From: Gracilinanus agilis
Taxonomy: Eukaryota
DNA length: 63,849 nucleotides
Direction of reading: 5' to 3'
Assembly (NCBI RefSeq): GCF_016433145.1
Contig: NC_058131.1
Location: 556,366,887-556,430,735, forward strand
Made by a program: the position numbers and the translations under genes. Of the stretch, positions 801 to 14,201 are shown piece after piece (within the stretch, counting starts at the first letter, position 1; the number at the start of each line of letters is the position of its first letter). The notes beneath the pieces were generated by a model. That model saw only the letters and a program-made list of their open reading frames with translations. It searched no databases and was not told where the DNA came from.

Positions 801-2029
801 GATTATCATTTTCTAACCTACCTCTCTGATTTAAAATATGAAGATTATGGATTACAGAATAGGTAGAGCAAGCTAGATATATCATCATTGCTATCTCTCA
901 GTGTTTTTTGAGATCCATGATGATAAGTCCTAGGTACCTATACTGGTTCACTGGTAATGCTCTTGATAAAAATAAGTTGAATGGAAATGATCTGCATATT
1001 AGTGCTGAGAATTCATTTTAGTTTTAAGACCTTATCCAAAACATTTGTCTTTTTCAATGTTCAGAGGCAAGAAATAAATCCCATCTCATCATCTAAATTT
1101 ATTTATTTCCCAAGAAGATAACATCTGAAGTGAACAAGATTTCCTAGATTCTGGTGGTTATGATTTATTAAATGTTAACAAAGACCTGGTTCCTCGTTCA
1201 GTCTTTGTCCTATAACAAATGGCAATCATCATTATTAACTGCTGAGTCCAAGTAGAAAAGATAGCTTTCCTCACATTTTTCACAAAAATGTTGGATGAAT
1301 GCTAAATTTCAAAAATCACACTAATTGTGTCAACTGAGTAATTCCTATAACGACATTGAAATATTCCCTTAAGGCTTATTCCTTTTAGTTAGCTTCTTCT
1401 CCGTTCTGTCTGCATTAAAAGTCAACTCATTTAACTTTGTCCTTAATTTTGTCTAGAAGAGTCAAAGGCTTAAGTCAGAGAGAGATTTCAAGACCATGAA
1501 ATGGAATTGAATATCATTAAGGTAAAAAATCACACAAACACCTCAGTTGCCTCACTCTTTCAATAAGTATTAAAGTCTTCTTAACCCTTAACATGACTGT
1601 AAGCTAGACCTCTACCACTATCACTTTTTACATTTGTCATCATGGTGCCCAAAGGATATCTTCAATGTGAATAATTTTATCTACTTCCACCTACCAGTTC
1701 TGAAGCAGACTCTAAAGGAAAAGAATCAGGTAAAAGAAAAGGATCCTCCAAAACCATCATTCTTTGGAATTAATCACATTCCATCAACAAAATTCTATTT
1801 ATTTGTCTTCCATTTATCGATAATTAAAACTCAGAAACCTAATCGTTGTCAGTGACCAATAGGAAAATGTTTGTGGAGTGAAGTCATCTTGCTGTGGGAG
1901 TTATTAAAACATTCTTCTTTGATTTTTCCAGGGACGCAGGAATAAGAACGTTTAAATTGTTGCTTTGTGATTTCAAGAAATGGAACATCCCACAAGGAAT
2001 ACAGGCCATAAATTTAAAGCTAAGAAGTC

Positions 2030-2420
2030 ACATTTGGAAGTCATTAAGTATTTATTATGTGTCTATTATATGGCAATCACAATGTTAAACACTAGGGATA
2101 AAAAGAAAACAAAAAAAGTCTGCTTTCAAGGAGCTCACAATCTAATGGGGGGAGACAGCATGCAAATAATGAAGAAGGTATATATAAGATAAATTAGAAA
2201 TAATTTCAAAGAAAAGGCATTAAGACCAAGAAGGAGTAGGTAAGTTTTCTTTCAGAAAGTGAGTTTTTTGCTAATTCTTGAAAGAATTCAGTGAAGCCAG
2301 GATGTTTAAATGAGAGAGGAGAGAGTTCCAGACATGAGGACAGCTAGTAAAAAATGTTCTGGCTCTAAAGTGTCCTATATGAAGAATAGTAAGGTAGCTA
2401 GTGTCATTGATCACAGAATA
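2030..2420 (-). mobile_element. L2 LINE 3' fragment
   Basis: 'aagtatttattatgtgtc...ctttcaaggagctcacaatctaatggggggagacag' is the typical antisense L2 3' end. Confidence 0.55.
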
Positions 2421-2439
2421 TATGAAAGGTATCTTAGAG

Positions 2440-2600
2440 ACCATCTAGATCAACTCCCTGTCCTATTTATATAATGGAGAAACTAAATCTCAATTAGGTG
2501 AAGTAGCTTGCCTAAGTTCACAGTTAGAATGTCTGAGGGAAGATTTGATCTTAGTTCCTTCCTAACTCCATATCTACACTCTCTGTCCACTATGCCTCTT
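2440..2600 (-). mobile_element. MIR/MAR1-type CORE-SINE
   Basis: 'ggagaaactaaatctc...gcttgcctaagttcacag...gatttgatcttag' matches the antisense CORE. Confidence 0.65.
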
Positions 2601-3158
2601 ATAAGGTCACCTTGAATTGTTGTCAATTTCAGACAGTTTGTAACTTGATCTTATTTAACACTGTTCTGTGTATCTTCCCATAGGAGTCCATTTGCCTAAA
2701 GTAGACATGATATGAAGCATTGGCACACATTTCCAGGACCCTAAGAGACTCAGGTCAGTGCTAATTAAAGCCAGAAACTGGGAAACTGAAAATTCCTATA
2801 CATCTCATTTTTATTTTTATTTTTTCTTAACAGTAATTTTTGTTGGATGCTTTTAAGATCTATGCCGTTTGCTGGATAACTGAAGTGCTAATTTCTGGGT
2901 GTAAAAAGAATGAAAATAGACAGCCTACAAATAATTATTCAATGTTTCAATAATCACTTATTGTTTAACCCTCATCATGCCAAGAAAATCTGCATTAGCC
3001 ATGAAGAGGGTAGAATTTCTCATTCTGATAAGTAAAGTCTATGGTTTTGATATGGGTAAGATCAGATATATACATTCTTTTGCTCTTTTGAGTTGTGGAA
3101 CAATATGAGGTAGAAATGGCAAATTAGTATACAAATGGCATTGAGAAATATAGAGACA

Positions 3159-3268
3159 GGGAGCAATTAGTTGGTTCAGTGGTTTGAGAGCCACTTCCTA
3201 GCTGTGTGACCCTGGGCAAGACACTTAATCCCCATTGCCTAGCCCTTACCACTCATCTGCCTTGGAAC
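3159..3268 (+). mobile_element. SINE1_Mdo-type SINE, 5' half (split by the ERV)
   Basis: Matches the intact copy at 36050-36250 through '...ctgccttggaac', with an internal deletion. Left TSD AGAAATATAGAGACA at 3144-3158. Confidence 0.9.
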
Positions 3269-3945
3269 TGTAAGAGGGAGATTTTATATATTTTATAGAT
3301 ATATATTTAAAGTGTGGCCACCAGGAATCAATAATTCATATTGATTCCATAATTAAAAGCCAAGTCAGGATTGGGTTTAAGGTAGTTTATTTACAATTAG
3401 GAAGGTAAAAGGTAGGGCAATAGAGAGAGGGAGAAGCTAGTCCAGGCCTGCAGAGGCCTGGATGGAGAGAGAAGGTTAAAGGGCTAAATAAATTAGGCTA
3501 CAAGCCACAAGGCCTAGCATTCAGATAGGCTAGAGCCTACTTAAGGTAGAGTGTTGGAAAAAAAGCCAAGGTAGGCCAAGGAAGTCAGCCTAACTTACCC
3601 ACGTGACCATTCAGAGTAGAAGCTGCCTGAGGTCTCCCCAGAGATCCTTCAGCACCAAGTTCAAAGCAGGAACTCCCTTAGCAGGAAGTAACCAACATAC
3701 TTGAAGAGAAAGTGTCTTTTGTCACTTCCTGTGGGTCCACCTCTAATTCAAGTGGACAAATGGCAGCCTCTACACTGATTTGGACTGCCCAAAGGGCAGT
3801 CCCTTGTTCTTGATTTGTTACTTATTGTCACGTGTGGGTAACTCATCCCCTTCCCCACTAAGGGAGGTGGGGATGATATCATCTCTATGCCTAGGGTAAG
3901 TAGAGTTTTGACTATGAATGGGCTAGAGCTAATTCTATTAACACA
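3269..3945 (-). mobile_element. ERV 3' LTR (677 bp)
   Basis: Minus strand starts TGTGTTAATAG just after the PPT and ends CCCTCTTACA. AATAAA at 3386-3391 (-). Confidence 0.9.
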
Positions 3946-3955
3946 ATCCCCCCTG
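3946..3955 (-). other. Polypurine tract (CAGGGGGGAT) abutting the 3' LTR
   Basis: G-run immediately 5' of the LTR TG on the minus strand. Confidence 0.8.
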
Positions 3956-5424
3956 ATGATCATATTGGGTGCCTAGTCACCCCAAGTGATCATTTTACAT
4001 AATCATCTTATACTCACAAAGGTCTTCTAACTACAATAGTTAGAGATAAGAGGGGAAATGGAAAAGAGATAAAGCAAAACCAATGTTTTGCTACATGCAT
4101 TAACAAGAAACCAATTGGGGGCAGTCCCCTATAGGTATAACATGTACAATTAAAGTAACTGTTCAAACCCCATCAGTACAATCAGTTGTACCCAAAAGTT
4201 CATTCTGGATAGCTCAATGCAACAAACTCATCAGTTCAATCAATTGCAACCCAAAGTTCATTCTGGATCTCTTGATTAAATGTAGATTTTTCAGGCATCT
4301 CTCTGCAAACAGTTCATTCTCTGGATTAAGGAATCAGCAAGTTTCTTTCCCTGAGAATTTTCTTGAACAAAATCAAAAATTAAATCTTGGATATAATAAA
4401 AATACAACTAAATCTTGGATTTTTATAAAAATACAATACCCCCCTGACTTGGGTATTTAGAAAGAAATACCCAGATCAGCTCAAGATATATAGTTGAGTC
4501 ATGGGGTTGTATGAGTAAATTCAAAAGAAAAAACAAAAGTATATAAAAAATCAAATAGAAGAAAATTGAAACTTTGGAAAAAGAAAACATTAAAATCAAA
4601 ATCAAAATATCAAAAGCTATGTATATAAAATTTTTGAAGAAACAAAATTATTAGGGTCCAATTAATAAAATTTCCATCCTACTAGTCTGTAGGACACAAT
4701 GCAGTAATACTGCATTTACCCATTTGCAGCTAAGACTACAGGAAGTTGCCATTCTATAAGAGAGAAAAAAGGACCAGATTAATATGCAAGGGAAGTGTCT
4801 GTCATTTCCTTCATTCTCAGGAATATATGGGTGAGCCAGATGATAGCCAACCTGTGGTACCTGACTGGCAGTGTAGTTCGAAGAGTCCTATGTCTTAACA
4901 TATGTTAAGCATTGAAACAGCGATTCTTACACTGAGTTCAAGTCCTTTGTGTTGGCATGGGAGTACCTCAATCCCACCTGTATTTGTATGAGCTCTTTAA
5001 GTTTGTGCTCCTTGGCACTGTGCAGATGTTCTCATCAATCCCATTGGATTGGTCGGTCGGTCTCCATGACCTTGTGCTTTGTTATTAGCACTATTAACTG
5101 CTCTTGTGTTCCCTTCTCCTGGAATCAGACAGAAGCATTAATCACAGTCCCATAACATTTAACAATATATGGCAGGTTCCCAAAGTCTAAACCTTGTGAG
5201 TAAGCAATAATATTACAGCATATATTTTATAGCATTGCAAAAAATAATGAAAAAAAATTAAGTGATTATATGTACTTAAGTACAAGAAATGAGAAAAGAC
5301 AAAAAATATCAATTATTCTATTAAAAGATATTAGGAAAATCAATAAGAAAATTAAAATAAAATCAGGGAAAGAATCAAGACAAACCAATGATTCAAAAAT
5401 TAGCATCCATTAGTCTACGAACTG

Positions 5425-8400
5425 TTATCTCCATGCAGGTAACAGGAAACAATCAGGTTCAATAGAAGATGCCCTCTTTACATGTGAGCAATGAATCCAA
5501 GAGTCCTTTTCTCCAATTTTTATAGCTGTTAGAGTAGTTAATAAATTTCAAACAGGCCATCCCATGAAGGCTGGGTTGCCCCAGTGCACTGGAAGTTCTT
5601 TATATACACCTTGTCTCCTGGGTTCAGGTCATAAAGTGAAAAGTCTATTGGTCCTGCTTGTACTGCAGTTCCAGATTCATGGAGTTCACTCAGTTTGTAT
5701 TGCAATTCCCATATATAGGAAGCAATAGAAGTATCTCCTCCTAAAAGTGTTGTATATGCAGGAGAAAAAGGCTTAGCCTGTATAGGAGGATGTCCAAAAA
5801 GCATCTCATATGGTGAGATGTGTAGATCTCCCCATGCCTGCTTCTAATAATAGAGCTAGAGGAAGAATTTCAGGCCATTTTAGATGTGTCTCAGTACATA
5901 ATTTGCCAATCATAGTTTTAAGTTCTCTGTTCATCCATTCAACTTGGCCTGAACTCTGGGGGTGATATGGTACATGGAATTTTGGAGTTATCCCCAGACA
6001 GGAATATATTTCACATAAAACTGAATCAGTAAAGTGACTCCCCCTGTCCGAGTCAATATGTGCAGGCAGGCCAAAACGAGGAATGATTTCTTTTAAAAGT
6101 ACCTTGGCAACAAAGGCTGATGTGGCTTGGGCAGTAGGAAACACTTCCGGCCACCTGGTCAGTTGATCCACTATGACTAGACAGAATTTATATTGTCCAG
6201 CCTTTGGCATTGTTATAAAATCAATTTGAGGGTACTCAAAAGGTGTGTATGCCAATGGATGCCCATCAAAAGACTTGCCACGAAAGGCGTGCTGGTTATA
6301 TGCTTGGCAGGTAGGGCAAGCTGCACACACTTTAGAGGCTATAGTGGTTATGCTAGGAGCTATCCGTACCCTTTTAACAGAGTCCACGATGCCCTGGGTA
6401 TCAAAATGACCATTTTTTATGAATAGATTGGCAAATTTCGTGATAAAAGTGTCTAGGGAGCAGGGGTTTTCCTTCAGAGGACACCCATACTCCAATTATC
6501 TCTTTAGCTTTAAATTTCTGCTTCCATTTTGTTACTTCCTTCTCATCATAGGAAAGTGATAAATTTGAGTCATCAGTGGTTGTTAATGTTAAAATTAATT
6601 CAGGCCCTTCTATAGCTGCTAGCTTTGCAGCAGTATCTGCCCGGTCATTTCCCCTAGAGACAGGGTCAGTGCCACCTGTATGGGCAGAGCAATGAACTAC
6701 ATCTAGGGCTTTGGGTAGCTGGAGAACAGAAAGAACTTCATTAATAAATTTTGCATTAGCTATAGATTTTCCAGCTGAGGTTAAAAATCCTCTCTGGAGC
6801 CATAACATACCCACTGCATGACATATTCCAAATGCGTATCGAGAATCCATATAAATTGTTGCCCTTCTATCTTTGGCAATTATACATGCATGTTTTAGGG
6901 CTATGAGTTCTGCGGCTTGAGCACTTAGATTTGAGGGCAGTGAAGCTGACCATACGGTGTTAAATTCTGTGACTACAGCAGCTCCAGTGTAGCATATGCC
7001 ATCCCTCATAAAAGAAGAACCATCAGTAAATAAAACTAGATCAGGATTCTCTAAAGGAGTGTCCAGGAGATTGTCTCGAGGCTTTTCAGCCATTGACACG
7101 AGTGTTTCACAATTATGTAAAGGTTCTTCTGAGACTGGTAAATCAGGAAGCAAGGTGGCAGGATTAAGAGTTGTACAACGTTTTAAAGTAATATTTTCAT
7201 TATTTAGGAAGGTTATTTCATACCTTGTAATTCCCTGATCAGAAAATGACTGTGTTCTATGCCTTAGCAGTAATGCTTCCACCTCATGTGGGCACATAAT
7301 TGTTAATGGGCATCCCAATACTAGATCAACAGATTTTGTCACTAACAGAGCTGTGGCAGCTACGCCTCTAAGACATGGTGGTGCACTTGCAGCTATAGGG
7401 TCCAGCTGGGCCAAATAATAAGCAACTGGACACTTGTAAGGTCCCAAAGTTTGGATTAAAACACCTGAAGCTACCCCTCTATGCTCATGTACATATAAAG
7501 TAAATGGTTTGTTATAATCTGGGATGCCTAGAGCAGGAGCAGACAGGATAGCTTGTTTTAAATTCGATAAAGCTAACTTGTGCTCTGGCTCTAATTTAAG
7601 TGGTTCAGGGACCGAATCTTTTGTTAATGCTATAAGGGGTTTAGTAATTTTCCCATAGCAAGGGATCCACTGTCTGCAAAAACCTGTTGCTCCTAAGATT
7701 GCTCTTAAGTATTTTTTAGTGGTAGGATCGCTCAATTTTTGAATATTTTCAATGCGTTTAGGGGATATATAGCTGGTACCAGCTGTCAAAATGAACCCCA
7801 AATATTCTACTCTGGGGAGACACCACTGAACTTTTCCTTTTGATATCTTATGTTCTCTTTTATGTAATTTACTATCTTCTTGGCATGTTTTAGCATCTGG
7901 TGAAGCCAGGAGCAAGTGATCCACATATTTAATTAATTTACTATTTTTAAATGTTATATTATCTGTATCTTGGCTCAAAATCAGAGCAAAAATGGATGAA
8001 CTTTCACAATACCCCTGAGGAAAACGCCCCCAGAACTACTGAGAATTATTCCAGGTAAAGGCAAATATATGTCTGGAATCCTCATGAATAGGAATTGAGA
8101 AAAAGGCTGAATACAGGTCCACGACCTGTAAAGTAAGTGGTTGTACTGGGAATAGAGGAAATTATTGTGTTTGGGTTTGAAACCACTGGGGGTCTCTTTA
8201 TAACATGATTGTTTATAGCCTTTAAATCTTAAACAAATCTATATTGGGGTTTTCCATCTGGGCCTAATATTGGCTTCTTAATAGGTAGAATAGGTGTATT
8301 ATATTTTGACTTGCATGGGATTATTATTCCTTGCTCAATTAATGTATTTATCACTGGGGTAATTCCCTCAATGGCTTCTTTTGATAAGGGGTACTGAGGA

Positions 8401-9016
8401 ATGGAGGGAGCTGGCCCTCCTCTTGTTCTAATCGGAAAAGGAAGAGCTGATTTAAGTAGGCCTACATCAGTAGAAGATGTGGCCCAGAGAGAGTCTGGGA
8501 TATCATCTGGGATTTCAAAAGTGGGAGGCTCCTTTACTTCCTGCTCTTCTGAGAGAAGTACAGGGAGCAAGTTTAAAGAGTCCTCAGGTAATTCCAGTGA
8601 CATAGAACCATCTGGATTGCAAATTATTGTGGCTTTAAGTTTATATAATAGATCTCTTCCCGGTAAGTTTGTGGGGGATCCAGGCATTAAAAGAAAGGAG
8701 TGTTCGATTGATAAAGGTCCAAGACTAACCAAATGAGGAGAAAGTTTTGGGACCTTTTGAGGTGTTCCTGATACCCCTACTACGTTTAGAGAGCTAGTAG
8801 AATTACAGTTTACATCTGGCTTGCTCACCAGTACTGATCTTGAAGCCCTAGTGTCTAGCAAACAATCGTAATATGAATTTCCCACTTTTAGGGTTACATG
8901 AGGTTCCTTACTATTTGGGGGGCAATGTATGGGGATAATGGGCATTAGAACATCAGGGTCTGGAAAGTCAAAGGTTTACTTTTTTGATTCCAAAGCCTTC
9001 CCCCCCACACACACCT
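5425..9016 (-). pseudogene. pol: ERV pro-pol pseudogene (protease, RT, RNase H, integrase)
   Basis: Protease EPHVTLKVG...LLDTRAS (DTGA mutated). RT FPQGYCES and YVDH (YVDD mutated). RNase H FTDGSS/AQAAELIAL/DSRYAFG/NDRAD. Integrase HKNGH...CPTC, QIDF/DSDRG/VEWMN, and a C-terminal WDGLF...WIHCSHVK module; stop at 5425. Several frameshifts and in-frame stops. The TGA-terminated gag followed by pro fits the class I readthrough layout, now one base out of frame. Confidence 0.93.
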
Positions 9017-10667
9017 TCATAAAGATGCTTGGGCTCCATGCCCCTCCCCCCCCCCCCACTGAGGGGCATTAGCACCCTGATTAGTTCTGGGGCAAGCTCC
9101 ACTTAAGATATACTGTTGTGGGGTCACTTGGAATGAGTTATCATCATCCCAAGATTTATTTCTAGCATTTCTATCATGCCTAAAATTACTATTCCTGGAA
9201 TCATCATCATCATCATCATTATTATTCCTATTCCTGTTGTTATTCCTATAGTTATCTTTCGGCTGGGCATCATTTCTGAAAAACCTTGAGAAATTTCTAC
9301 AAGTCATCATTGTATGGCCCTTTTTTGCACAGAAAGAAAAGATAGTGGGCCTATTCTTAGATTCTTGGAGAGGGGCTATAATCTCTCCTTTATTTTTTAG
9401 TTTTTCTTTTAGCATTTTTTTTCTGCTTTTAAAGTATCCATTGAGTCAGTATCTTTCTCACGTTCTTGTGCTTGGCCCCTAAAAACATTGGATCCTACTT
9501 TCCTCAATTCCCCAAGGGTCATAGTTTCCCAGGTTGGGCAGTTAGTTTTAAAGTAGTCTTTGACTATTTTGCAGGAATTTTTTACAAATTGCCTAAGTAC
9601 ATGTTTAATATCCCGTTCCATGGCTAAATCAAGGCCCAAATATATTTCTGCAACCTCAATCAGCCTGTCCATAAAATGGGAGGGAGTTTCATGGGTAAGT
9701 TGTCTGGTTTCCTAGAATTTTGACCAGGTGTCCTCTGTATCAGCACAGGTTTTCATGGCTATCAATAATGCCTCCCTGCTGTCATGCAATTTCTTAATAT
9801 CTGTTGCAGAATTATCTTTTTTATGGTTGGCCCGAGTAATGATCCTCTCTTTCCCAGCAACTGTCAGAAGTTCATCTAAAACATTTTCAACATCCTGCCA
9901 GGTAGGGTCATAAGTTCGGAATATATTGCCTAATTTTTTTTAAAACTATGAATAGTTCTTTCTCAAAAGTGGGCATATTTTCTTTAAATCTAGTGAAATC
10001 ATCAGGGCTGAAGGGAGTAAAGTGTCTTACAGACACCAAGTCTCCTTCAGTATTAAAAGTGGGTACTTCTCGTAAAGGAAATAGCACTGCATTATCTTGA
10101 GTTCCTGTCTCTGTCTGAGTAGAGGCAGAGAGGGTAGGGGCTGAAGCAGCAGCAGCATCTAGGACTGTCTGTGGGAGGGGCTGAGGGGTGGGTTGGATGG
10201 GTTGTGGAGGGGGCAGGATGGGCTGAGGATGGGGCGGTACAAGTTTGGGAGGGGGGGTGGGTTGAGGAGGGAGGGTGGCAGTATCAATATCAATGGATTG
10301 AGTGGAGCGTGTGTCAGGAGCGCTTTCAGAGGAATCCTCAAATGAGGAAGTATGGAGGAATAATTCTCTCTTTTGTTGGAATTTCCTTCTCAACTGTTTC
10401 CTCTTTTTTAAATGGTTTTTTACATAAGCCATCAGTTGCTCTACATTCCTCTCCAACTTACTCGTTTTCCTTATTGAGAAGTAAAGATAAATCACTCCCC
10501 CTACAAGCATTGCCATCACCCTTAAATACAGTGTGAGAAATATCCCTTGAATTGTATTTTGTGGGACTACTAACCTGAAAAAAAAAACTCACTCCTATAA
10601 TGTTGATCCAGTTTTTAAAAGTCTGGACTCCAGAGTTCACTAAGTCTTTAATGGGCTGAAACCACAT
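9017..10667 (-). pseudogene. gag: ERV gag pseudogene (hydrophobic N-terminus, Pro-rich region, p30-like CA, CCHC NC, N/D-rich tail)
   Basis: FPLREV...FTPFS, YDPTWQDV, ETPSHFMDRL (MHR-like), and F-x2-C-x4-H-x4-C knuckle. Three frameshifts and an in-frame TAG at 9712-9714. Confidence 0.88.
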
Positions 10668-11244
10668 TTTGTTCCAGAAAATTGATAAATCTGCCTATAA
10701 CTTACTCTTGTCAGTAGATGTCACTAATGGGTAAGGTTTTCCTTCTAAGGGGTGGGCTAAGGTTCTATTGTTTTTGGATTAAGACTTCCTTTTGTTCCTG
10801 CCTGGCAGAAGACAAAGGCTATAGCCTGAGGCTGAGTTCTAGAGATTAGGTTCTTTGAGGGTAGACAGGGCTAAAAAGCAGTTGGGAGTGTCTTTCAAAG
10901 GCTCTGGGAGGCTCTTTTCAGTTGTAAAAGTCTGAAGGTTTTTTTTTTAATCTAAGTGCCTTCTACTCTGGGGAAAAGGGCCATTTAAATTCTAGCTGGC
11001 CCCATCAGGCTTTTGCTTTTTACCACTAAAGATTTTAAAACTAGAAACACAGTTTTGAAATAAAATAGAGAACCAAGCTAAGGCCTAGTTGTAGCCTAAA
11101 AAATTTACTCTCCCTAAAAAATCTACTAATATGCTGAATCTAGTGCCTTCTGCTTCCACTAGGAACAGGGCTGCTTTTAAACCTTATTCAGGTGTGTCCC
11201 AGGTGAAACTAAGGCCAGCTAATTGGGTTATTTGTTCCCTAAGG

Positions 11245-11297
11245 CAATACGTGGTTTTGATTCTATGATGGAAGAAAAAGGTTTAAAAAATAGGAAA
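11245..11297 (+). mobile_element. SINE1_Mdo-type SINE, 3' tail (other half)
   Basis: 'caatacgtggttttgattctatgatggaagaaaaaggtttaaaaaa' corresponds to the SINE1 tail. Right TSD AGAAATACAGAGACA at 11298-11312. Confidence 0.85.
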
Positions 11298-11509
11298 AGA
11301 AATACAGAGACAGACTGAACAAATTAAATGAGCCAAAATTTTTGTTCTCTATATATCTTTAAACATAGTTTGAAGGCAATCTTTCAAGATCCTTGTAATA
11401 AGTTCCCTTGGCTTGTTTATTTTATCTTGAATTCAGTCTGAACAGTATTAATTACTGATGTTCTTGTAGCTCCAAAAATATTTTCTCAGTTCTTAGTCAT
11501 ACAGCAATC

Positions 11510-11830
11510 ATAAACATGAATGTGATAAATTCATTCATAAAATGGAAGAGGATAGGAGAAGTCTTTGGAAACCAAACTCCAATAACATATTGTTTATAAG
11601 AAAAACACTTTAAATAGAAAGATTCACATCAAATTAAAATAAGAGACTATAATTGAATTTATTATTCTTCAGGTAAAGTAAAATAAAAAGATGAGTAACA
11701 ATCATGATCTCAGAAAAAAGAAAATTATAAGAGATAAACAGGAAATTACATTTTGCCAAAAGGTACAACAACCAATAAAGTAGCATCAATACCAAACACA
11801 TATGCACCAAATGGCATAGCTTCCAAATGC
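11510..11830 (+). mobile_element. Old L1 ORF2 endonuclease fragment
   Basis: Degenerate homologue of the L1 endonuclease region at 13010-13340. Confidence 0.6.
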
Positions 11831-11911
11831 AGTTACTAAGTATAATTCAAATATCATGGAGTCACAGTCAGGATTACATAAGACTAAAGAACTTCTACAT
11901 TAAAAGATCAG

Positions 11912-12245
11912 AAGAAATTGAATATAATGGACTTTTCTACCAGTATCAACGCAATGACTCAGGACAGTTTAGAGGAACTTAGGAGAAAGAATGCTATCCA
12001 CATCCAGAGAAAAATCTATGGAACCAGAAATGCATTAAAAATTTTGTGATTGACCACATAGTGATTAGGGTTTTGATGTTAAAGAATCGCTCTACTGCAA
12101 ATATGAATAACATGGAAATAGGTTTTGAACAATGATACATATAACCCAGTGGAACTTCTTGTCAGCTTTGGGAGGGGGAGGAGAAAGTGAGGGGGATCAT
12201 GAATCATGTAACCATGGGAAAATATTCTAAATTAAAAAAATATTT
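11912..12245 (+). mobile_element. 5'-truncated L1 3'UTR insertion
   Basis: L1 3'UTR with G-rich tract and A tail, flanked by TAAAAGATCA duplicates. Confidence 0.75.
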
Positions 12246-13391
12246 TTAAAAGATCAAAAGACTTGGAATATGATGTTCTGTGGAATAAGCAAACTAGGCT
12301 TACAACCAAGAATCACCTACCTAGCAAGAGCAAAATGGTTCTTTAATAAAAATAGAAGACTTCCAAGAAGCTTGATGAAAAGATCAGACCTAAACAGAAA
12401 ATTTAATGTTCAACTACATGACTCAAGGGAAGCATAAAAAAGTAAATAAGAGAGAACATTTAGGGCATTTAATGAAGTCAACTGTTTATATTCCTACATG
12501 GAAAGAAAATATTTGTAGTTCTTAAAATTTTTATCAGTATTAGAACAGTTAAAAGGAATAAAGATACAGTGGGTGTAGAAGTAAGCTGATTAGGATGACA
12601 TGATGTGCAAAAAAATTTTTAAAAATCAAGGGGTACAAAAGAATATTGTGCTAAGAGAGAGTTAGAATAGGGTAAATTATCTCACCTACAGAGGTATAAA
12701 AAACTACTAGAGTAGAGAAGAGGATGAAAGTGGTGATTGGCAATGCTTAAAACTTACTCTAATCAGCATTGGCTTATAGAAAGAATAACAACCATACTTA
12801 TTTGGGTATAGAATCCTAACATATTATAGAGAAGTAGGAGGGAAATAATATAAGAGGTAATAGAAGGGAAGGGGAAGTGGGGAAATGATGGTTTAAAGTA
12901 AAATACTTATGAGGAAGGACAGAGTGAAAGGAAAGAAAAAGAACAGGATCAAAAGGGAAAAATAAGATTAAGGGGAATACACAGTTGGTAATCATAACTA
13001 TGAAGACAAATGGCATGAACTCACCCATAAAATGGAAGCAGAAAGGAGAGTAGACTAAAACAGATTCCTATAATATATTGTTTCCAAAAAAAAAATTTTG
13101 AAACAAGGAGACATACACAGAGTATAGATAAGGGGCTGGGACAGAATTTGTTATGGTTTTGCTGAAGTAAAAAAAAAAGCAGTGGTAGTAATCATGATCT
13201 CAAACAGAGCTAAAGCAAAAATAGATCTTATTAAAAGAGATAAGGAAGGAAATTACATCTTGATAAAAGTTACTATAGACAACATTGTAGTGTCAATGCT
13301 AAACATACTTGTACCACATCGTATAGCCTCCAGATTTTTAAAGGAGAATTTAAATGAGCTTCATGAGGAAATAGTAAAACTATATTAGTAG

Positions 13392-14201
13392 TGTAGAAAT
13401 GATAATAAATAATGGAAATGGAGACACCAGGGTTATTATAATAAAACTAAGTGATTGTGGGTTTACACACTCGGTTGTAGGAGAGACTAGACCAGGTTGG
13501 AAGACCAGAGGTCAGCTATGCTGCTGCTAACTGACAAAATGGCTGTTGATCAACTGTCACCCTGGGCCAGAGGCAGGCAAACAAGCAGGCAAGGTAAAAG
13601 GGGTTTAACAGCTTTATTTATGTTAACTAAAAGGTGGGATAGGGATTTCTACTCTAAAACCCTTAAAACCTAATGACAAAACCACAGAGAAAGGGGAGGA
13701 TTTTCCCTACACTAACTTAGTGACCTAAACAGACAGGGCCCAAGGAGCTGTAATGGAGTCTCTGGGTGACTGCCTCAGACCTGGACCTGCCAGGCTTGAG
13801 CAGCACAGCTAAGGGCTGATGTGGCTTTGGAGTTCTCACTGTAATCCACCAATGATCTCTGGATGCCAAGAGCCAAGGTGGTCTCAGGTACCAACTTGAG
13901 AGGGTGTGCTTGAGACACTGTCCACCAGATCCCAAACTTCTCCTCTTCCCTTGGTACTGCACTGAAGATCTTGTCCTCTTTGCTAGATGCCACCAGGGAA
14001 AATCAGGATGCAGGTTGTCCTTTACTCTGAGATCTCCCAGGGCTAACCACAATTTGTGCAAACCCCTAATGGAGTCCCTCTCAGAGCACAAGTCACTTCT
14101 TCCTGCTCCTTCATTCCATCTTGGAATTCCCAGCTCCAGCTCCTTCCTGCTAGATACACCTTAATTCTTAATTCTTAATTAATCTAATCTTCCTCACAAC
14201 A
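13392..14201 (-). mobile_element. Solo LTR (family A, 810 bp)
   Basis: TG...CA ends, exact 4-bp TSD GTAG (13388-13391 / 14202-14205). L1 sequence is continuous across it. AATAAA on minus strand at 13613-13618. Confidence 0.9.

Follow-up and report, generated by a model that had tools for sequence, protein, structure and literature searches.

An env-less class I endogenous retrovirus of marsupials with a predicted membrane anchor in place of the Gag matrix

A degraded class I element in the window

The window, the whole 63,849-nt stretch of Gracilinanus agilis DNA that was analysed, contains a broken class I endogenous retrovirus (ERV) on its minus strand, from 11247 to 3266. The 5′ LTR and primer site are missing, and what remains at that end is a 5′ leader (10668–11247) that aligns to the leaders of LTR-bearing sister copies. 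The gag ATG (10667–10665), which specifies Met-Trp and not Met-Gly, has A at −3 and is preceded by nine open codons and then an in-frame stop. The N-terminal ~40 residues (10544–10667) are predicted to form an amphipathic helix on the far side of the membrane. They are followed by a predicted transmembrane anchor of ~24 residues with a Tyr/Phe belt at its end (10472–10543), based on hydrophobicity and pN/pS, and then by a long helix, likely a coiled coil, with a Lys/Arg-rich stretch (10367–10471), assigned to the capsid side from the net charge in sisters. A Pro-rich spacer (10169–10270), which has no canonical late-domain motif in a scan of open reads, leads to the class I capsid with its FPLREV motif (10081–10064), the nucleocapsid region and the gag stop; this block (9017–10081) is broken here and was placed by Gag_p30 and 6hwx matches of a sister ORF. 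Pro-pol (5452–9011) lies in several pieces, with protease, reverse transcriptase (RT), RNase H and integrase (IN) identified by Pfam RVP, RVT_1, RNase_H and rve. About 1.5 kb of AT-rich, non-coding DNA without an env profile match occupies the expected place of env (3946–5451), and a 3′ LTR of ~680 bp (3266–3945) matches the 5′ LTRs of sisters at 78–95%.

This copy is a poor example of its family, because it lacks the 5′ LTR, has stops and frameshifts in both gag and pol, and carries a charged residue in mid-helix that has no counterpart in any of 15 open sisters. In addition, its gag frame breaks in a run of ten T (10587–10578); the ATG opens a frame of 69 aa, and the hydrophobic helix is encoded in another (10588–9908). 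An earlier, sequence-only reading of this locus had described the ATG with its upstream stop, the T-run break, the helix (10543–10472), the polybasic stretch, the Pro-rich region and FPLREV, and its coordinates were right. It had also joined the two frames by removing one T; natural sisters gave the same continuity.

Other features of the window are incidental. No tRNA genes were found in it. Interspersed-repeat DNA, with translations that we take by resemblance to be LINE-1-like, occupies 11380–13400, where the 5′ LTR side of the element would be. A 45-nt direct repeat, 84% identical and 58 bp apart, lies at 4166–4268 in the non-coding stretch before the 3′ LTR.

The element is of class I (gamma/epsilon-like), as the earlier reading had proposed. 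A natural 480-aa sister ORF matched Gag_p30 (E 2.9e-14; a second Pfam value was 1.1e-17) and the MLV-type capsid 6hwx (E 1.1e-14) and no matrix family, and the integrase C-terminus is of class I type (MLVIN_C, E 1.5e-14). Pro-pol follows the gag stop in frame in older and young copies. In 11 of 21 older copies, the commonest state, gag ends in TGA and pro continues in that frame, and the others have slipped in a G-run; a programmed gag-pro frameshift, suspected from single copies, was therefore rejected. Two older copies have complete LTR pairs, which are 89.6% and 93.2% identical.

The Gag start in sister copies, and the absence of matrix and env

A DNA search for sisters, in which 40 of 335 candidates were scored, gave 42 matches. 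The loci read numbered 39, made up of the window copy, 33 sequences of up to 10 kb and five shorter ones. Two pairs were more than 99.5% identical, and four loci were dropped before variants were counted. The gag ATG is kept in 38 of the 39 loci, none begins with Met-Gly, and the in-frame stretch upstream is open for 2–26 codons only and contains no Met. One natural frame runs from the ATG through the hydrophobic helix of ~24 residues at 24 loci, 22 of which have a best 19-residue Kyte-Doolittle mean (KD19) of at least 1.9; at three of the 39 it continues as far as the capsid motif. The T-run codon is frameshifted in 4 of 31 aligned copies. The best KD19 was 1.95–2.64 in 15 aligned sisters vs. 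0.05–1.08 in 27 Met-Gly matrix-type Gags, and because these ranges do not overlap, the helix is not due to chance. ATGs are depleted in the leader (0.4 per 540 nt vs. 2.4 expected; 23 sisters), while the post-pol region of the window, used as a control, is at expectation (32 vs. 32.1). A single frame that begins at the conserved Met-Trp ATG encodes, in order, the helix, the basic stretch, the Pro-rich spacer, capsid and nucleocapsid, followed by TGA and in-frame pro-pol.

The helix spans 24–28 residues and has both an aromatic belt and a basic stop. In 15 sisters the net charge is 0 to +1 before the helix, +1 to +4 just after it and +10 to +14 over the 50 residues that follow. The N-terminal segment has a hydrophobic moment of 0.38–0.59. 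Two older copies are longer by seven residues, in frame, in the long helix. The summed insertion energy of older copies (−2.0 to +0.8 kcal/mol, on a position-free scale) is only modestly favourable for the predicted membrane span. Two structure models of the N-terminus, both of low confidence (pTM 0.28 and 0.25), place a helix at residues 4–30 and 7–34; this N-terminal helix ends at a break, after which comes a long helix, and the models show two or three long helices and no compact bundle. A Foldseek search with such a low-confidence model returned no PDB match. As for a host donor of the N-terminal module, a profile search of longer proteins gave one unnamed match (E 0.08), the ESM Atlas no usable match and viral contigs none, blanks that are not proof of absence.

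We built a matrix profile from 23 Met-Gly Gags, and it recovered four left-out outgroup proteins (E 1e-12 to 1e-18) and two internal matrices. It found no match in the proteins of the group (best E 0.099) or in the first 2.6 kb of 54 loci, leaders included (best E 0.19), and profile-profile comparison with matrix returned a probability of 0.2%. A matrix hidden upstream or in another frame was ruled out by the same profile and its positive controls. The Met-Gly start and Trp-rich matrix domain of a gammaretrovirus-type Gag are thus both lacking, as the sequence-only reading had held.

The env gene that a gammaretrovirus-type provirus carries between pol and the 3′ LTR is also absent. The longest stop-free sense frame after pol is 78 aa in the window and 39–82 aa in eight older sisters, and the ~1.5 kb after pol in 20 young loci has stop-free frames of at most 92 aa. 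Neither profile nor tblastn searches found env in the 54 + 20 loci; the profile was built on a single set of 30 env ORFs from this genome, and a very old remnant could escape it. An env remnant was sought by motif scan as well and rejected, the CX6CC matches lying in gag or pol regions or in flanks. Elsewhere in the genome env ORFs abound, with at least 78 strong TLV_coat matches, mostly without stops; since the integrase at these loci is only 25–30% identical to that of the window element (12 of 30 loci with a match) and there is no DNA match, they belong to unrelated elements. Five of these env ORFs (L083–L087) are identical and form a tandem array on one chromosome with ~5.8-kb spacing, and their matched integrase is likewise 25–30% like that of the window. 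P[ST]AP, PPxY or YPxnL motifs were found before the capsid in none of 15 open reads (12 distinct loci). Late-domain motifs occur in 1 of 15 group members vs. 12 of 28 outgroups, a weak contrast because the nearest outgroups, from turtle and echidna, also lack them. In sum, Gag has no matrix homology and the element has no env.

A young subfamily, its relatives and the pattern of selection

A genome search with the window integrase scored 150 matches of 9,758 candidates, all at least 89% identical and many with a 1195-aa open frame; because the group is this large, it may make up much of the marsupial ERV load. Pol was fully open in 13 of 20 fetched young loci, and these copies differ by 1.1% on average (0.5–2.0%). 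The window pol is 86–94% identical to one natural young pol. Many young loci have assembly gaps over gag, but the readable starts show the same design, and gag (600 aa) is open together with pol in at least one copy. With the N-terminal 120 residues as query, a second search found 150 matches among 370 candidates, from which 30 loci were taken; six were unparsed and 19 distinct open copies were used. The young helix is stronger (KD19 2.6–2.8), and a second hydrophobic stretch appears at residues ~21–35 (KD15 1.5–1.7). In one older subfamily this first stretch is not hydrophobic (KD15 0.25), while the main helix is retained. Repeats of ~25 residues have lengthened the long helix in four young copies (L149, L151, L160 and L165); the opossum proteins A0A5F8HCD7 and A0A5F8GLG2 have repeat arrays of their own at the same place after the helix.

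Among database proteins, pol is 75–83% identical to its two closest matches, one of them named as Monodelphis, and at most 57% identical to all others (at most 46% over long alignments). The closest named proteins all come from Monodelphis domestica. A deep protein search found 251 proteins, and our figures on breadth come from the 150 listed. A quick tree, computed from 131 capsid regions, united ten rows, this Gag and Monodelphis or unnamed MetaClust proteins, in one group (SH-aLRT 100); six have hydrophobic N-termini, four are records without the N-terminal domain and none begins with Met-Gly. Outside this group, 2 of 121 rows were hydrophobic, both glyco-Gag-like with an intact matrix behind. 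A more careful tree of 43 rows, which included eight natural Gags from this genome, placed 15 rows beyond a long branch (100/100), in two subgroups that each mix opossum and own-genome rows. KD19 peaks at 1.5 or more in 14 of the 15, the remaining record being short, and no matrix profile match was found among them. In two rows of the second subgroup, both from this genome, the first in-frame Met is followed by Gly, which counts against a Met-Gly-free group; by eye, this Met-Gly aligns with an internal Met-Gly of an opossum protein, and no matrix lies behind it. Snapping turtle and echidna supply the rows closest to the group, Gags with a Met-Gly matrix. Because the root is a midpoint root only, saying that the matrix was replaced rests on matrix being general among the outgroups.

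The sequence-only reading had spoken of one lineage. The feature is indeed present there, but this was an understatement, as a whole marsupial group shared with opossum carries it. The pattern would fit descent from an ancestor that predates the split of the two marsupial lineages, and it would also fit a later exchange. The second subgroup has no env in any of 20 loci and includes one locus with LTRs 99.1% identical, and two or three hydrophobic peaks are seen in related families. The family of the window element is recently active, large and env-less, with close relatives in opossum. The Monodelphis Gags in or near the group (UniRef A0A5F8HCD7, XP_007499152, XP_056658484, XP_056674145 and, outside the trees, XP_056656115) share its capsid, at 50% identity for A0A5F8HCD7, and have hydrophobic N-termini without matrix, but differ in N-terminal sequence and in the number of hydrophobic stretches; databases annotate them only as uncharacterised or p30-domain proteins.

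Two further sets of loci stand out. At loci L114–L117 (oriented ~1450–3060), gag frames of 530–600 codons are open and 63–67% identical to opossum XP_007499152; the sequence is identical at three of the four, and a tandem pair lies 7,079 bp apart. At L115 and L117 pol has 18–21 stops and is in 8–9 pieces, and the LTR pairs are 92–95% identical. Open gag beside broken pol hints at host co-option of a hydrophobic-start Gag. In a second family of the group (L121–L131), ~300–420 extra codons without a Pfam match above cut-off lie between the gag stop and protease.

For older copies, variants were counted per column against the commonest codon. Singletons were near neutral (omega 1.06–1.13 over whole regions), and shared variants gave omega values of 0.29 for RT, 0.32 for IN, 0.77 for capsid and 0.84 for codons 1–112. 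Stops made up 0 of 65 shared non-synonymous variants in codons 1–112 vs. 6 of 72 singletons. The helix had omega ~1.1 across the old subfamilies, which counts against simple sequence conservation. Nevertheless, its changes at subfamily level were to hydrophobic residues in 9 of 10 cases (50% expected) and to polar residues in none of 10 (32% expected; P 0.01–0.02). Across the old subfamilies, then, it is only the hydrophobicity of the helix that is kept, and not its sequence.

The 19 young copies show purifying selection on the helix (pN/pS 0.16, bootstrap P 0.002; 0.16–0.20 over different counts) and diversification of residues 2–44 (pN/pS 2.83, bootstrap P 0.003). Shared variants per column numbered 37 non-synonymous vs. 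3 synonymous in residues 2–44, and 2 vs. 4 in the helix (Fisher P 0.003 between the two). These P values are rough, because pairs are not independent and recombination lies outside the model. The earlier expectation of helix dN/dS below 1 was therefore borne out in the young subfamily and not in the old ones. RT, RNase H and IN in young copies had pN/pS 0.12–0.20 (n = 13), and since pol is under purifying selection in old and young copies alike, the family replicated with this Gag. The young capsid (L146–L165) had pN/pS 1.3–1.4 against 0.12–0.20 in pol, a difference that is not significant (n = 10) and that suggests pressure from a capsid-binding host factor.

Reading of the Gag N-terminus and comparison with known systems

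We favour, as on balance probable, an env-less class I retrotransposon in which a predicted N-out/C-in span has replaced the matrix, so that particles would likely assemble on internal membranes and spread within the cell. SRP would bind the helix and direct insertion at the ER. The positive-inside rule is established, and with low charge before the helix and strongly positive charge after it, the predicted orientation is N-out/C-in, which keeps the capsid in the cytosol as a working capsid needs. About 40 residues would then lie outside, while the cytosolic capsids would assemble on internal membranes. The coiled coil and basic stretch may have assumed the clustering and the lipid or RNA binding of a matrix, and viral protease may separate the anchor from capsid by cutting the hydrophobic-Pro junction that precedes PLRE. 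A host factor may press on the exposed N-terminal segment. Conservation of the ATG and helix in old and young subfamilies supports a membrane-anchored Gag, and intracellular retrotransposition is the simplest reading because there is no env, pol is under purifying selection and the young copies form a burst.

The fast change of residues 2–44 would be more readily understood if these lay on the outside of the cell, and it counts against assembly on internal membranes. The anchor might instead take Gag to the plasma membrane, where the outward ~44 residues would act as a built-in mini-envelope, like reovirus FAST proteins or sORF2, for passage from cell to cell, for example from soma to germline. 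We think this rather unlikely, and equally doubtful the broader proposal that this marsupial class I group, long-lived yet still young, replaced matrix and envelope together by one capsid-fused module whose outward tip is a mini-envelope in an arms race with the host. The order of amphipathic ectodomain, N-out span, aromatic belt and basic patch is that of FAST and sORF2 as reported in PMC11952523, although by sequence only, and the diversification of residues 2–44 beside a conserved helix recalls the surface parts of viruses. However, the module is fused to the capsid and not encoded by a separate small ORF, canonical late domains and an N-myristoylation motif are missing, and five sequences have neither a Cys motif nor a glycosylation sequon within the first 48 residues. 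A luminal or cytosolic host factor could also cause the same selection.

The N-terminus could also be membrane-bound with no luminal part, either as a cytosolic hairpin, which the second hydrophobic stretch of young copies makes possible, or through recruitment by SRP, as for the Gag of mouse intracisternal A-type particles (IAP), which is reported to be bound by SRP and brought to the ER membrane but not translocated in vitro (PMC3945221). The element would still be an intracellular retrotransposon. The two or three peaks of related families point the same way, but the first stretch is not hydrophobic in the older subfamily noted above, which keeps its main helix, and the length, aromatic belt and basic stop of that helix are the usual marks of a full span; we judge this reading unlikely. 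Reinfection with Env supplied in trans by other ERVs, the anchor being an alternative plasma-membrane targeting signal, would have the many long env ORFs of this genome to draw on. Env capture normally needs matrix, however, and with matrix and late domains absent and the env loci belonging to unrelated elements, we hold it to be quite improbable. A last reading, in which T-rich leader DNA yields the hydrophobic frame incidentally, or the frame is a side product of glyco-Gag type, and structural Gag starts elsewhere, is hardly credible. T-rich codons do favour hydrophobic residues, and omega is near 1 across the old subfamilies, but no downstream Met is common to all subfamilies, no matrix lies behind, purifying selection acts on the young helix, the design recurs in opossum proteins of different sequence, and the two true glyco-Gag-like matches keep an intact matrix behind their hydrophobic part.

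The membrane-anchored, intracellular Gag that we prefer bears on a wider question. The change from infectious retrovirus to intracellular retrotransposon is known at the level of Gag mainly from mouse class II elements, and the present group would be an independent example from class I and a more radical one, with a predicted membrane span in place of the matrix. The matrix-bearing turtle and echidna outgroups polarise the change, and the young copies offer open frames, so it becomes testable whether loss of env generally needs re-addressing of Gag, and which host factor drives change at the N-terminal tip. If the outward tip were a mini-envelope, no earlier vertebrate ERV would be known to pass from cell to cell without Env, and at some loci the host may have co-opted this Gag.

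Among known class I Gags, MLV glyco-Gag has an N-terminal signal anchor, which belongs to an accessory extension that precedes an intact matrix, and Gag lies in the lumen. Here, in contrast, no such extension exists (2–26 open codons upstream and no matrix downstream), the anchor belongs to the sole Gag start, and the charge pattern predicts a cytosolic capsid. Zebrafish BHIKHARI Gag is reported to bind membranes without a classical matrix via an N-terminal coiled coil (PMC12067270, whose main text does not contain the word ‘transmembrane’), and Drosophila Gagr is described as a domesticated gag that gained a transmembrane domain (PMC7231272). Unlike our element, these are of Lokiretrovirus or Metaviridae origin and are non-autonomous or a host gene. 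The sORF2 proteins of Drosophila MDG1-group retrotransposons and the reovirus FAST proteins are described as having a short amphipathic ectodomain, one N-out span, a Tyr belt and a basic patch (PMC11952523). The same succession is seen here, and the sORF2 host element is also env-less, but those are separate small proteins, often myristoylated, whereas ours is capsid-fused with a Met-Trp start; we found no sequence link between the two. Literature searches turned up no account of env-less ERVs, either marsupial or of class I, whose Gag is transmembrane, although Repbase and the supplement of PMC11334065 may already name these families.

MusD/ETn and the marsupial, much amplified MEBrv 3 of dasyurids (PMC11334065) resemble our element as env-less LTR retrotransposons derived from retroviruses; they differ in being class II and are not known to have a transmembrane Gag. 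The three class I clades of PMC11334065, MEGrv 1–3, are given there with env and with LTRs of 281–486 nt, against ~620–680 nt here. None of the findings that would have spoken against the sequence-only reading and that sequence can answer (a Met-Gly matrix, a closed or unconserved frame, or env-bearing relatives) came to light, and its interpretation is partly supported. Its likening of the element to mouse IAP, which is reported to have arisen from IAPE by a new signal addressing Gag and by losing env (PMC10924933), holds for the loss of env together with a new hydrophobic Gag N-terminus and for the large intracellular expansion. The analogy is nevertheless loose. IAP gag-pol is class II (betaretrovirus-like) and its Gag stays untranslocated in vitro, whereas here capsid and integrase are class I, the matrix appears to be replaced outright by a predicted full span and coiled coil, and the design extends over many families in two marsupial genomes. 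The group is convergent with IAP in kind, combining loss of env with re-addressing of Gag, yet it is not an IAP.
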